From the sequence record NC_001901.1: DNA of 46,375 nt, one strand, 5' to 3'. This DNA is from Escherichia phage N15. Positions 18,301 to 28,489 of the stretch are shown here, in pieces. Positions within the stretch are counted from its first letter, which is position 1. Every line of letters starts with the position of its first letter. The notes under the pieces were generated by a model. That model made no database searches and was not told where the DNA came from. It worked only from the letters and a program-made list of their open reading frames with translations. The translations under genes were made by a program, and so were the position numbers.

Positions 18301-18527
18301 CGTTTATCCAGGATGGCACGATCACGAATGCCAAAATCGGTAATTTTATCCAGTCCAACAATTATGTCGCCGGGCAGTCCGGGTGGAAACTGGATAAAGG
18401 AGGTACCTGGGAAAACTACGGCAGCGACGGGGAGGGCGCAAGAAAGACTACGAATGTAACGGACAGCATCAGGGACGCGAACGGCGTTCTCCGCGTACAG
18501 ATTGGTAAAATTACGGGGGTATTTTGA
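15342..18527 (+). CDS. central tail fibre / host specificity protein (lambda gpJ-like)
   Basis: 1061 aa; gpJ family N-terminal region and internal fibronectin-III-like segment; synteny. Confidence 0.95.
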   Translation: MATSTPIRGRKGGSSSSRTPTEQPDDLQSVAKAKILVALGEGEFAGQLTAKDIYLDGTPLENADGSQNFSGVAWEFRPGTQAQNYIQGIPGTENEISVGTEVSSATAWTHTFTNTQLSAVRLRLKWPSLFKQEDDGDLVGYSINYAIDLQTDGGTWQTVLNTSVTGKTTSGYERSHRIDLPQAGSTWTVRIRKLTADANSAKIGDKMTLQSYTEVIDAKLRYPNTALLYIEFDSSQFNGSIPQISCEPRGRVIRVPDTYDPETRTYNGTWLGTFKWAWTDNPAWIFYDLVVSDRFGLGDRLTAANIDKWTLYQVAQYCDQPVPDGKGGSGTEPRYTCNVYVQERNDAYTVLRDFAAIFRGMTYWGGDQIVALADMPRDVDYSYTRANVVDGRFTYSGSTTKTRYTTALVSWSDPGNAYADAMEPVFEQELVSRFGSNQLEMTAIGCTRQSEANRKGRWGILTNNKDRVVSFNVGLDGNIPQPGYIIAVADELLSGKVMGGRIRAVNGRVITLDRDSAAAAGSRLMVNLPSGASQSRTIQSVNGRAVTVTTAYSETPEVESVWIVESDELYAQQYRVISVADNNDGTFSISGVFHDPDKYARIDTGAIIDQRPISVIPPGNQSAPANIVISSFSVVQQNVSVETMRVSWDQAKNAIAYEAQWRRNDGNWVNVPRSSTTSFDVPGIYAGRYLVRVRAINAAEISSGWGYSEEKTLTGKVGNPPKPVGFTATGINWGIRLNWGFPANTGDTLKTEIQYTANSDFSDPLLLTDVPYPSSEYIQLGLKAGQEFWYRAQLVDRTGNESGYTDWIRGMSNDNADDYLGDLADDFMKAEDGERLTGDIDTNIEGILQNALANHGTVEHQWAQYGEVRADILVVKTTIAEVDRAMAEMSTQVQAQISDVTAALEDKLTAVVDASGASAIYTLKAGVRINGIMYNAGMSIAVLAQAGQPIVTRVGFNANQFVLMSGSGDTQYSPFAVVNGQVFISSAFIQDGTITNAKIGNFIQSNNYVAGQSGWKLDKGGTWENYGSDGEGARKTTNVTDSIRDANGVLRVQIGKITGVF

Positions 18528-18829
18528 TGACGTGGGGCATTCAGACGTGGGATGCCAATGGCAACCCGAACAATTACGGTATTAAGCCAGTTTCAGTGGT
18601 AGGCCGCATCCCGCTTTCTGAGGGGCAAAATTCCGGAAGCTGGTCTTTTGCCATTCCGGCAGGAATGAAGGTTGGGTTTGCCGTTTCTCTGGATAAGGGG
18701 GCGGTCTCTGTGGGACGACGTATCGTCGCCAGCGGAAATACGATAACTCTTTCCGCGGCAAGCAGCGTAGGGATTGGAAACTATCCAGCATCTGAATGTG
18801 AGCTCATAGTTTATGTGGAGAAAGCCTAA
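18527..18829 (+). CDS. hypothetical protein downstream of J
   Basis: ATG overlapping J stop (ATGA); shares W-x-I/F-x-x-WDA-x-G motif with next ORF. Confidence 0.5.
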   Translation: MTWGIQTWDANGNPNNYGIKPVSVVGRIPLSEGQNSGSWSFAIPAGMKVGFAVSLDKGAVSVGRRIVASGNTITLSAASSVGIGNYPASECELIVYVEKA

Positions 18830-19506
18830 TGGCAGATTATGGCGCGCTGATTGCTCTGGAAAACGGAAATCCTTTTATTACCCCACAGTCCACACCATTC
18901 TGTCTATACAGAAAGGTAGTGGTTAACTCAGTGGCAAATGGGGCATACCACGGTGCTTCTGCGACGGTAGCTCTGGATGCTTCTTATCCGGCGATGGTTT
19001 TTTGCAAAACGAGTGATACAGCCCAGCCCACTACAGTCGGGGCAACCCGGTCAGGAGGAAACATTCTTGTTGGATCGAGCAGTCCTTATGGACAGGCACA
19101 TACATTAACGGCTTACATCTTTGCTATTTATCCTCAGACATTGCCAAAATGGGGATTTGCTATCTGGGATGCCACTGGGAAGTTGGTTCTGACAAACGAA
19201 AGTCGGATATTGAGTGACCTTGTGACTGTTGGGTCGCCTGGATCTACGACAGGTGGAATTAATATTGACGTCACTCTGCCTGGTAGTTATGCGGTGGCAC
19301 CCGCTATTCTTGGCTCCCAGATAATCCAGAACAATAACACTAAACCACCCACTATTGTGAATATCACCGCTTACTCAGGATGTCGGTTTAATGGTTCATC
19401 AACCAGAATTAATGCCGCGCCGTCGACAACGGCTACAGGTTCTGCTGCGGGAGGGACAACGACTGGAATAGCTTTGACGGCCATCAACACCGCAGCATAC
19501 GATTAA
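18829..19506 (+). CDS. hypothetical protein downstream of J (paralogous motif to preceding ORF)
   Basis: RBS GGAGAAAG; start overlaps previous stop; Thr/Gly/Ala-rich C-terminus. Confidence 0.5.
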   Translation: MADYGALIALENGNPFITPQSTPFCLYRKVVVNSVANGAYHGASATVALDASYPAMVFCKTSDTAQPTTVGATRSGGNILVGSSSPYGQAHTLTAYIFAIYPQTLPKWGFAIWDATGKLVLTNESRILSDLVTVGSPGSTTGGINIDVTLPGSYAVAPAILGSQIIQNNNTKPPTIVNITAYSGCRFNGSSTRINAAPSTTATGSAAGGTTTGIALTAINTAAYD

Positions 19507-19617
19507 TTGATCGTTATTATCGATTGATTAATGAATATCTATATACCTTATTGGCTATTATTGGCATCGTAATACTGTTATTGTTTATAAACTTATATTT
19601 ACGGGGAATTTTCAAAA

Positions 19618-19854
19618 ATGGGAAAAACCATTATTGCCATTGGATTTTCGTTATTACTTTCTGGATGCTCAGGTATGCTCGAAAAGCAGTCTCCAGTGTG
19701 TACTGGCACAGCTTTGATAGGTGGTCAGGAAACAGAAGTTCAAATTTACAGCATTCGTAAGCAAAACAATCAGACTATGTATCGAGCTGGCTATCCGTTC
19801 AATTGGCAGTGGGTTGGGAAAAATAACTTTATTTCAACCACGTGTGGCACCTAA
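19618..19854 (+). CDS. cor: small lipoprotein, Cor-like (FhuA-directed superinfection exclusion / lysogenic conversion)
   Basis: 78 aa, signal peptide with lipobox LLSGC; AT-rich upstream region; terminator downstream; position after tail genes as for phi80/N15 cor. Confidence 0.6.
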   Translation: MGKTIIAIGFSLLLSGCSGMLEKQSPVCTGTALIGGQETEVQIYSIRKQNNQTMYRAGYPFNWQWVGKNNFISTTCGT

Positions 19855-20020
19855 ATTTGTTATTAAAAATGCTATAAGGTAGCATTATGTCGCTGTTGTG
19901 AATCCACCTATGCGGATGGGCGTACAGCTGAGCTATCTCTGATGAGATCGTAAACGAGACCGCGGACTCTTTGGCTGGAGAGTTCACTGGGAGGCACCCA
20001 GCACAACAGCAACCAATTAC

Positions 20021-20047
20021 AAACCCTGCTTCGGCAGGGTTTTTTAT
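20021..20047 (+). terminator. rho-independent terminator
   Basis: accctgcttcggcagggt hairpin followed by T-run. Confidence 0.7.
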
Positions 20048-20065
20048 TGCCCAAAAGGAGGGCAT

Positions 20066-21478
20066 ATGTCAGCAGGAACGATCACCCTGACAAACGGGTC
20101 CGCTATTGTTGGCGGTTCCGGAACCTCATTCGCAACTGAACTTGCTGCAGGTGACTTCATTGTCTCTACTGTGGGCGGCGTTCCGTATACGCTGCCCGTT
20201 AAATCGGTAGAGAGTAATGCCCAATTGACACTGGTCAGCAACTTTACAGGGCCGACACAGTCTGGGGCAGCTTGGTCAGCTGTTCCCCGCGTGGCGCTGA
20301 ACATGGTAACTGCCGCGCTGGTAGCGCAAAGTGCTGAAGCGCTGCGGGGACTGAATTACGACAAACAGAACTGGCAGCAGGTCTTCAGCGCGGCAGGCAA
20401 CATAACTGTGAAGCTACCAGACGGCACCACCTTCACCGGCCCGTCATGGCCGTCTGTAATCAGCCAGACAAGCACATTGAACGGGAAAACTGGCGGACTA
20501 GTTCAGGGTTCCTTATTGGTAACGCCAGGCGATTCTATTGGTGTCAAGAGTGGAACAGGCGGAGACAAAACCATTGTTCTGGTAAATAGCCCTTCCGATG
20601 GTCCGGTTGGCACGTATGTGAACTCTATTGCGGGAAATTATTACTCAGGTAATTGGCGAATGGGGGCTGTTCGCGGTGATGGGGTGGATGTATCCCGAGT
20701 TCAGTTGAATATTTACGATGGTGTTTCATCATCCGCATCGTTTATGTTTTATCCTAATGAGCTATTTAAGGCATCTTCTTGTGGTGCTCCTGGAGATTTT
20801 CGGGGGGATGCGTGGGGTGTTCTTAATGGTTGGGCAAAAAACATTTCATTCTATAGAGAGAATTTATCCTCGCCTAATAACGGTGGTTTTGTACCCTTTG
20901 GTAGATGGAATAGTTACTGTTCTGGTGGTTACTACTCCACAGCAGGACTCGGTTCTTTGGCAACCGGGCCCCAGTCCTTTGCTGATATAGTTATGACAAC
21001 ATTATGCGATGCTGGTAATGCTGGCCAGAGAACTTTTTACTTTCAGACAACTTCTGGCGACATTGTTACAACCGGAGCTGGCGCGGCTCCAGGTAACTAT
21101 ATTTTTTCCAAGCAAGCTAACTGTGATATCACGCTGAAGCATAATGTGAAATACGATGATGGTTACCAGTCATACGAAAATATTAAACAATTACAGCCCA
21201 CTACATACGTCTACAAAGATGATCCTCGTGAGAGAGTCCGTCGTGGCATCATTGCTCAGGATGTTATGAAGATCGACAGCGAGTATGTAAAGTTAGTCCC
21301 GGCAACACCGAAATTTGATAGCGAAGGTAACCGGATTGATGCTGACGATACGCTAGCACTGGATAACAACGTCATCATGCTTGATACCGCGCTGGCGCTG
21401 AACTATGTCATTAAACAGCTGGAAGCTACACAGAAAGAACTTGCTGACCTTAGAAATCATTTTGCTGGTTCTTTATAA
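20066..21478 (+). CDS. side tail fibre protein with C-terminal intramolecular chaperone (peptidase S74-like) domain
   Basis: RBS AAGGAGGG; C-terminal GIIAQDV...ALDNNVIMLDTALALNYVIKQLEA is the typical auto-cleaving chaperone domain of tail fibres/tailspikes. Confidence 0.75.
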   Translation: MSAGTITLTNGSAIVGGSGTSFATELAAGDFIVSTVGGVPYTLPVKSVESNAQLTLVSNFTGPTQSGAAWSAVPRVALNMVTAALVAQSAEALRGLNYDKQNWQQVFSAAGNITVKLPDGTTFTGPSWPSVISQTSTLNGKTGGLVQGSLLVTPGDSIGVKSGTGGDKTIVLVNSPSDGPVGTYVNSIAGNYYSGNWRMGAVRGDGVDVSRVQLNIYDGVSSSASFMFYPNELFKASSCGAPGDFRGDAWGVLNGWAKNISFYRENLSSPNNGGFVPFGRWNSYCSGGYYSTAGLGSLATGPQSFADIVMTTLCDAGNAGQRTFYFQTTSGDIVTTGAGAAPGNYIFSKQANCDITLKHNVKYDDGYQSYENIKQLQPTTYVYKDDPRERVRRGIIAQDVMKIDSEYVKLVPATPKFDSEGNRIDADDTLALDNNVIMLDTALALNYVIKQLEATQKELADLRNHFAGSL

Positions 21479-28246: not shown

Positions 28247-28411
28247 GGTATGCATTCCTATCTTGTATAGGGTGCTACCACCAGAGTTGAGAATCTCTAT
28301 AGGGGTGGTAGCCCAGACAGGGTTCTCAACACCGGTACAAGAAGAAACCGGCCCAACCGAAGTTGGCCCCATCTGAGCCACCATAATTCAGGTATGCGCA
28401 GATTTAACACA

Positions 28412-28489
28412 CAAAAAAACACGCTGGCGCGTGTTGTGCGCTTCTTGTCATTCGGGGTTGAGAGGCCCGGCTGCAGATTTTGCTGCAGC
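28412..28489 (-). ncRNA. candidate small regulatory RNA / attenuator leader: promoter (TTGACG-18-TAGAGT) followed about 75 nt later by intrinsic terminator
   Basis: -35 at 28525-28520, -10 at 28501-28496, hairpin aacacgc/gcgtgtt + U-run at 28435-28412 on - strand; N15 immA and P4/P1 immunity RNA paradigm. Confidence 0.45.

Follow-up and report, generated by a model that had tools for sequence, protein, structure and literature searches.

Escherichia phage N15 carries a predicted STnc100-family small RNA, complementary to the fhuA leader, behind its cor gene

In the genome of Escherichia phage N15 (NC_001901.1; the window referred to here is the whole stretch of 46,375 nucleotides (nt) that was analysed), the segment between the genes associated with J and the tail-fibre gene holds two elements that share one terminator: cor, which encodes the exclusion lipoprotein Cor, and a predicted small RNA of the STnc100 family located behind the cor stop codon. 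The RNA contains two 11-nt stretches that are perfectly complementary to the leader of fhuA, the gene of the outer-membrane receptor on which Cor acts. From these sequence features it is predicted, as a moderately probable reading, that the N15 locus is a two-part anti-FhuA unit composed of the Cor protein and an antisense-type RNA.

The cor gene occupies positions 19618-19854 on the plus strand, with an ATG at 19618 and a stop codon at 19852-19854 that is included in these limits. In the list of open reading frames (ORFs) it encodes a prelipoprotein of 78 amino acids (aa) that starts with MGKTIIAIGFSLLLSGC; its signal peptide, MGKTIIAIGFSLL-LSGC, ends in a lipobox read from the sequence as L13-S14-G15-C16, with Ser at position +2. 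An earlier reading made from the letters alone (the sequence-only reading) had proposed a Cor-like lipoprotein here, and both the ORF with its lipobox and the Cor-like identity were borne out. Over residues 1-76 of 78 the product matches the NCBIfam equivalog NF047972 'phage exclusion lipoprotein Cor' (134.5 bits, cut-off 31); it also matches PHROG 1119 'Cor superinfection exclusion protein' (E = 3.4e-32), and a Pfam search of the ORF gave no matching model. Within the window, the stretch at 24.7-28.8 kb shows 99.9% identity to the GenBank entry for the N15 telN/cA region, and the partition, protelomerase and tail genes expected of N15 are present, so that the frame is the N15 cor gene itself, not merely a Cor-like one. 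A second plus-strand ORF that overlaps it, 19524-19760, was considered and rejected, having no family support. The protein part of the locus is correctly read and already known: Cor of N15, phi80 and HK022 has been reported to protect lysogens from FhuA-dependent phages via FhuA inactivation (PMC3594210).

Between the cor stop codon and the terminator lies a non-coding gap of 166 nt (19855-20020), which folds at -67.5 kcal/mol (z = -4.6, none of 200 shuffles being as good). The sequence-only reading had suggested that this gap might carry a small RNA, and the suggestion was substantiated by a plus-strand match to the Rfam family STnc100 (RF02076) at 19863-20048, which scores 72.5 bits (gathering score 47; E = 1e-13 over the whole window), spans model positions 1-206 and is not truncated. 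The predicted STnc100-family small RNA corresponds to 19892-20048 on the plus strand (157 nt), as indicated by the RF02076 match, the fold and the G-U pairs. Its 3' end is formed, at 20011-20048 (+), by a single-stranded linker (20011-20020) and an intrinsic terminator, which the sequence-only reading had also placed behind cor and which a terminator scan found at 20021-20048 as a 9-base-pair (bp) stem (20021-20042) followed by TTTTTTATT, with the U-tract at 20043-20048. This terminator is common to cor and the RNA, and stands directly behind cor in loci without the RNA body. STnc100 has been described as one of the most frequently annotated bacterial small RNAs, with no assigned function (PMC9029176), and a 2026 preprint ties the family to PasD. 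The copy located just 3' of stx2B is EcOnc27/sRNA103, which is Hfq-bound, has been confirmed by Northern blotting and forms a dyad with AsxR (PMC7873438; PMC12711010). The N15 RNA region itself was found in none of the complete E. coli genomes at E <= 1e-5.

The RNA is preceded by a predicted promoter of its own at 19857-19885 (+), with a -35 element TTGTTA (19857-19862), a 17-nt spacer and a -10 element TAGCAT (19880-19885). The evidence is positional conservation: in seven of nine cor-linked copies (N15, L003, L057, L062, ES18, Eho49 and L160; numbers with L denote the contigs compared) the last base of the -10 element lies exactly 12 nt upstream of the invariant GTGAATCC, the sequences varying as TTGTCA...TAGCAT in L057, L062 and ES18, TTGATT...TAAAGT in Eho49 and TTGTTA...TAGAAT in L003. 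Based on this position, the start of the small RNA is predicted at about G19892, the first base of helix P1, giving the length of 157 nt. L006 and L224 have no internal -35/-10 pair, and their RNA copies would depend on read-through from cor. As a separate observation, a palindrome, ATGCTA-TAAGG-TAGCAT (19869-19887), lies over the spacer and the -10 element in N15 and is absent in relatives.

The fold of the RNA is conserved across the family. RNAalifold applied to 14 sequences gave 29 pairs, 16 of which show compensatory changes, and a further test was made on 70 sequences, less than 90% identical to each other, to which the percentages that follow refer. The five nested helices are paired in 93-99.7% of cases and the whole structure in 88% of cells, against 39-46% in controls with slid partners; whole-structure covariation reaches 0.361 versus 0.162 in shuffles, none of 500 shuffles being as high. 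P1 is formed by GCUGUUGUG (19892-19900, +) and its partner CACAACAGC at 20002-20010, with compensatory changes and 98.8% of cells paired. Within it follow the hairpin P2 (CCACC / GAUGG, 19904-19919, +), which comes just after the invariant GUGAAUCC and is 99.1% paired with two pairs changed on both sides, and the helix P3 (19920-19963, +), in which GCG at 19920-19922 pairs with CGC at 19961-19963 (94.8% paired) and the third pair appears as GC, AU or UA. The hairpin P4 (GGACUCU / AGAGUUC, 19964-19985, +) is 93.3% paired and all six of six pairs are changed on both sides, and the hairpin P5 (CUGGG AGGCA CCCAG, 19987-20001, +) is nearly invariant in the family, its second pair changing from U-A to C-G. 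P3 encloses a variable insertion, the most variable part of the scaffold across the family, and it is this insertion that holds the two stretches complementary to fhuA.

G-U pairs are frequent in P1 and P4, which identifies the plus strand as the RNA strand. The same evidence bears on a coding explanation of the region, a small protein of 78 aa encoded by a minus-strand ORF at 20065-19829. The 78-codon frame is open in N15 and in L003; in the other relatives, however, it is not kept, the longest open stretches being of 51-71 aa in shifting frames interrupted by 1-7 stops, and the substitutions are compensatory for RNA helices, where many pairs are G-U and would turn into A-C mismatches on the opposite strand. 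The minus-strand ORFs over the gap also have no family support. Such a protein can be given hardly any credence. Two structural readings were also tried and rejected: for a hammerhead ribozyme, CUGAUGAG...GAAAC at 19938-19960, no ribozyme family was found at E <= 10 and the stem II and GAAA box do not fit, and for a tRNA-like interpretation of the five-helix layout ARAGORN found nothing.

A sixth interaction involves the bases just inside P3, CAGCU at 19925-19929 (+), which pair with the P4 loop, GGCUG at 19973-19977, forming a pseudoknot supported by duplex energies and covariation. The partners vary widely among family members (CAGC/GCUG, CAGUC/GACUG, CUAGAC/GUCUAG, CAACUA/UAGUUG, UUGAUC/GAUCAA and others). 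In fixed MAFFT columns only 54.5% of the cells are paired, as the pairing is split between two registers, with slides 0 and +1 equal, and the pseudoknot was for this reason assessed sequence by sequence against foreign partners: the duplex with the own loop has a mean energy of -9.4 kcal/mol, against -6.2 kcal/mol with foreign loops and -5.0 kcal/mol with shuffled ones, the own partner having a median rank of 0.11. Even in fixed columns the covariation is 0.309 versus 0.192, and none of 500 shuffles was as high. The pseudoknot is absent from the structure line of Rfam STnc100 and is not mentioned in the 2026 PasD/STnc100 preprint.

Since Cor acts on FhuA, the RNA was tested against fhuA, the comparison covering 43 genes of one 50-kb K-12 segment, fhuA included. 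A perfect match of 11 nt was found in two of the 43, namely fhuA and one gene whose match involves the terminator stem. In fhuA, duplex inspection revealed two such matches. Block 1, UAUCUCUGAUG (19934-19944, +), is the perfect complement of fhuA positions -16 to -6, CAUCAGAGAUA, which is the Shine-Dalgarno region, and block 2, CGUAAACGAGA (19949-19959, +), is the perfect complement of positions -42 to -32, UCUCGUUUACG, at the predicted 5' end of the mRNA. Both blocks are collinear in the antiparallel sense, being separated by 4 nt in the RNA and by 15 nt in the fhuA leader. The two-block score for fhuA is 22, and the next best of the 43 genes scores 15; among 5000 dinucleotide shuffles of the RNA the mean score was 8.5 and the maximum 18, none reaching 22. 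When the translation starts of N15 itself were examined as targets in an unconstrained duplex scan, only long, interrupted and uninformative duplexes were obtained, and the 11-mer TCTCGTTTACG has no exact second copy within the window.

The energy of the RNA-fhuA hybrid is -29.3 kcal/mol, or about -18 kcal/mol net after opening both partners, the opening of both blocks costing 8.3 kcal/mol. Block 2 has an unpaired probability of 0.71 in the RNA's own ensemble and an opening cost of 2.1 kcal/mol, as expected of a seed. On the target side, 4201 of 5422 E. coli genomes have a fhuA leader with at least 99% identity, and conservation extends to Salmonella, Citrobacter, Klebsiella, Enterobacter and Buttiauxella. 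The block 2 target is preceded, at a distance of 7 nt, by a conserved (T/C)ATAAT element; taking it as the -10 element, fhuA transcription is expected to start at about -42, the very point at which the complementarity stops. In the literature available no mapped fhuA transcription start was found, and one paper on a 'fhuA promoter' concerns Vibrio cholerae.

The complementarity is associated with cor. Among 123 unique STnc100-type cores, both blocks are present in seven of the eight that are cor-linked and in one of the 115 others (Fisher p = 9e-10), and the blocks remain free of mismatches, whereas identity in the remainder of the RNA has fallen to 75-87%. The RNA of Erwinia phage Eho49 carries a variant of block 1 with an extra base, UUCUCUGAAUGAG. 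A matching leader was predicted from this RNA and metagenomes were scanned for TCGTTTACG-N(8-30)-CATTCAGAGAA; there were 26 hits, about the chance expectation for such a pattern, and three of the 26 lie immediately upstream of a fhuA homologue, on contigs whose FhuA is 89-90% identical to Erwinia FhuA, its closest relative. The leader variant (C)TCATTCAGAGAA is also present in genomes of Erwinia sp., E. typographi and Kalamiella. When RNAs and leaders were scored against each other, the Enterobacteriaceae-type RNAs (N15, ES18, L006 and L224) reached 19-24 on the E. coli, Salmonella, Citrobacter and Enterobacter leaders, with 21-24 on most leaders of Enterobacteriaceae, 17-19 on those of Klebsiella and Buttiauxella and 15-18 on those of Erwiniaceae, whereas the Eho49 RNA scored 20-23 on Erwiniaceae and 18-19 on Enterobacteriaceae leaders. 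One element of a Kalamiella sp. prophage, located between Q and the holin gene and not adjacent to cor (L231, 3446-3560), carries AUUCUCcUGAAUGA, which matches, with one bulged base, the Shine-Dalgarno region of its own host's fhuA leader (UCAUUCAGAGAAU). This element keeps in addition AGUGAAUGA, complementary to the middle of the E. coli-type fhuA leader.

These data also bear on the view that the N15 element is an ordinary STnc100-family RNA with other targets, whose match to fhuA has no regulatory consequence and may be, for example, a remnant of captured host DNA. The family is indeed widespread elsewhere, as 115 of the 123 unique cores are not beside cor and most of these lie between Q and the holin gene. 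A characterised member, EcOnc27/sRNA103, has been linked to fimZ and espA and not to fhuA (PMC7873438; PMC12711010), and the presence in L231 of a segment antisense to the middle of the leader is compatible with an origin by leader capture. An inert captured segment should, however, decay evenly, which is not what the two perfect blocks in a diverging RNA display; the copy in the Erwinia phage has the block in its Erwinia form, and a chance match is excluded by the 5000 shuffles. We therefore regard a functionless match as unlikely in comparison with a loop directed at fhuA.

The distribution of the RNA among cor loci was studied by comparing the sequence behind cor in 80 loci encoding Cor relatives, taken from viral contigs. 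In about 65 loci, such as HK225 and mEp213, the cor stop codon is followed by some 17 nt and then by a terminator homologous to that of N15, while in about 12 loci (N15, L003, L006, L057, L062-65, L068, L070 and L072) the stop codon is separated from this terminator by the RNA body, an extra segment of about 145 nt. Phages ES18 and Erwinia Eho49 likewise have the RNA body behind cor, and no RNA gene follows cor in phi80, HK225 and mEp213. As the same terminator is present with and without it, the RNA body reads in these sequences as a clean insertion or deletion within the cor unit. When 41 distinct Cor proteins were placed in a neighbour-joining tree, the loci with the RNA fell on deep branches and the short form mostly in one derived clade, which favours an old association of cor with the RNA and a later deletion, in a tree rooted only by midpoint. 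A change of surroundings was observed in L062/L111 (IMGVR_UViG_2648501434_000005), where the cor-RNA unit is followed not by the tail-fibre gene but by the gene of a 946-aa protein with a tape-measure-like start, so that the unit has moved to a different tail-gene context.

Outside the cor loci the family was surveyed with patterns on viral and genomic contigs, filtered for both invariant motifs, which retrieved 126 elements. Only seven of these sit behind a cor gene; most lie between the Q antiterminator gene and the holin gene, often there as two or three tandem copies with differing P3 insertions. Tandem arrangements are seen, for instance, at L084 2473-2910 and L087 1794-2451 and in L101, L217, L220, L221 and L233. 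In phage 933W (L086 1801-2060) a canonical STnc100 (207.7 bits) lies 75 nt after stx2B and is followed by AsxR (88.1 bits) on the opposite strand. In N15, gene 25 starts 18 nt past the terminator, which leaves no room for an AsxR-like antisense partner.

Since the RNA body is flanked by the cor stop codon and the cor terminator, every cor transcript must contain it, and in L006 and L224 the predicted internal promoter is missing. Both facts would suit a 3' untranslated region that acts in cis on the cor mRNA, serving as an exonuclease stabiliser or processing platform with no function in trans. This interpretation appears quite improbable, given that the same core occurs without an upstream gene partner, often in tandem, at about 115 other places, that most cor genes do without it, and that a positionally conserved promoter precedes it; a stabilising role would, moreover, leave the 22 nt of fhuA complementarity unexplained. 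It could also be argued that the element, lying immediately 5' of a terminator that stands in the way of late transcription towards gene 25, controls read-through into this tail-fibre gene as an attenuator or an antitermination RNA acting on the terminator at 20021-20048. In ES18 (L002 1455-1880), however, cor and the RNA body have an inverted orientation with respect to the tail operon, whereas the terminator keeps the tail-operon orientation and stays with the tail-fibre gene. Loci without the RNA body keep the same arrangement of terminator and tail-fibre gene, and the usual place of the STnc100 family is elsewhere, which makes a role in read-through highly improbable. The ES18 RNA copy has mutations in P2 and P5 and is below Rfam significance, as if decaying without its terminator.

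Base-pairing small RNAs usually lower the synthesis of their target. For a two-part unit directed against FhuA, the following sequence of events can be envisaged. Cor, a small outer-membrane lipoprotein reported to inactivate the receptor, acts on the FhuA protein, and an RNA of about 157 nt would be produced, probably both from its own promoter just past the end of cor and through transcription that reads on from cor, both transcripts ending at the common terminator. The variable loop in P3 would expose blocks 1 and 2 to the fhuA mRNA; block 2, which is open, would seed the pairing at the 5' end of the fhuA leader, and block 1 would then cover the ribosome-binding site, so that translation would be blocked. 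A lysogen would consequently make less FhuA while Cor would disable what is made. The transcription start, the Hfq dependence, the repression of fhuA and the effect on phage and colicin sensitivity are all inferred.

Several points weigh against this proposal. Most cor loci are devoid of the RNA and Cor alone has been reported to exclude, so that the known phenotype does not require the RNA. The RNAs linked to cor all belong to one related lineage, and the seven occurrences of both blocks among eight cores are not seven independent events. The fhuA leader is so conserved in Enterobacteriaceae that the co-variation of RNA and leader rests mainly on one contrast, Erwiniaceae versus Enterobacteriaceae, and the L057-type RNA gives equal scores on both leader types. 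Block 1 forms the 5' arm and loop of a 5-bp hairpin and, with an unpaired probability of 0.46, is half buried. The fhuA start is placed from sequence, and block 2 would be left with nothing to pair with in the mRNA should transcription begin downstream of -32. The comparison that supports specificity is limited to the 43 K-12 genes. To these can be added that in one study of a strain lacking such a prophage, deleting hfq left the amount of fhuA transcript unchanged (PMC5389530), a result that neither supports nor excludes the proposal.

What appears to be new is a cor-linked STnc100 lineage that combines a predicted promoter of its own with a pseudoknotted scaffold and with a loop that can pair with the leader of the gene for the receptor on which Cor acts; within the limits of the literature available, no paper on a prophage RNA directed at fhuA was found. 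A broader view, which we hold only tentatively and consider possible rather than probable, is that STnc100/PasD, which ranks among the most abundant orphan small-RNA families of enterobacterial genomes, is a pseudoknotted scaffold with an exchangeable antisense loop in P3, used by prophages to silence host genes, and that in the cor-linked lineage this loop is aimed at the fhuA leader, giving a two-layer shutdown of the receptor used by the prophage itself, at the protein and at the mRNA, that stems from an old pairing. Until now Cor has been viewed as an exclusion system of a single gene, and STnc100 as a prophage RNA that is abundant but has no known role. If the proposal is true, fhuA would be the first concrete target for a member of the STnc100 family, and a receptor-blocking protein and a receptor-silencing RNA could travel as one mobile unit. 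It would also suggest that the variable loop of the scaffold is the seat of target specificity, in which case other copies, including the one behind stx2, would be readable likewise. FhuA is the entry route for phages T1, T5 and phi80, colicin M and albomycin; carriage of the unit would therefore change the sensitivity to these agents, and would affect ferrichrome iron uptake.

The surroundings of cor agree with what had been read from the letters. The gene lies, as then stated, between J-associated genes and the side tail-fibre gene: upstream are homologues of two small post-J genes, 18524-18829 (PHROG 557) and 18829-19506 (PHROG 425), and downstream of the unit is the tail-fibre gene at 20066-21478 (gene 25; PHROG 1980, Pfam Peptidase_S74), an order of post-J genes, cor and tail-fibre gene that is also seen in HK225, mEp213 and Eho49. 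The AT-rich upstream region of about 110 bp was likewise found, as a spacer of 111 bp (19507-19617, +) with a GC content of 0.24 (19500-19599) and 0.29 (19550-19649) against about 0.5 in both flanks, and, from reading the sequence, with a ribosome-binding site GGGGA at 19603-19607. A scan for sigma-70-like promoters upstream of cor gave a sole match, the weak candidate TTGACG-18-TACGAT at 19474-19503 (+), with 9 of 12 matches, which lies inside the end of gene 23 and is not conserved in other cor loci; a comparison of the upstream regions of 12 cor loci gave no consistent -35/-10 pair. GATC-rich inverted repeats, GATTGATCGTTTTnAnCGATCAAT ... ATTGATCTAnnnAATCAATTAT, are present upstream of cor in many loci, two per locus (L001 at about 1570-1640, and also L284, L004, L007, L074 and L006), with a diverged version in N15 at about 19503-19535. 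These repeats may represent an operator or a Dam-sensitive control of cor expression. Elsewhere in the window, in the N15 immunity/antirepressor region, a C4 antisense RNA (78.8 bits; 28301-28388, minus strand) adjoins isrK (62.4 bits; 28414-28489, minus strand), both above their gathering scores.

Compared with known systems, the protein component of the N15 locus is the same as Cor of phi80, N15, HK022 and the mEp phages, with a full-length match, the lipobox and the position in common and no protein difference. The locus differs from the described cor unit in the extra RNA gene behind cor, which is lacking in phi80, HK225 and mEp213. This RNA shares with STnc100/EcOnc27/sRNA103, and with the relative PasD, the same helices, the intrinsic terminator, the carriage by prophages and a score above the gathering threshold, and EcOnc27/sRNA103 has been described in enterohaemorrhagic E. 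coli (EHEC) as a discrete Hfq-binding RNA (PMC7873438). The usual position of STnc100 is, however, between the late promoter or Q and the lysis genes, or just after stx2B, often with an antisense partner (AsxR), whereas the N15 copy is in the tail region behind cor and has none; it is also divergent, with 72.5 bits as against 207.7 for 933W. The fhuA complementarity appears neither in the Rfam structure line nor in the 2026 PasD/STnc100 preprint.

Lambdoid morons are independent promoter-gene-terminator units inserted between essential genes. The N15 cor unit is moron-like in its AT-rich upstream region, its own terminator, its place between tail genes and its variable presence among related phages. 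Unlike usual morons, it would be a two-gene unit of protein and RNA, with two promoters, that of cor being only a weak candidate, and one terminator. The nearest likeness in the mode of action is to Esr41, a small RNA of an EHEC island whose base pairing represses the CirA receptor and so confers resistance to colicins 1A/1B (PMC5286369). In both cases a horizontally acquired RNA is directed against a TonB-dependent outer-membrane receptor, by experiment for Esr41 and by prediction for N15. Esr41 differs in belonging to family RF02676, in targeting cirA, chuA and bfr, in lacking a partner protein that acts on the same receptor, and in its outcome, which is colicin resistance and not phage exclusion.

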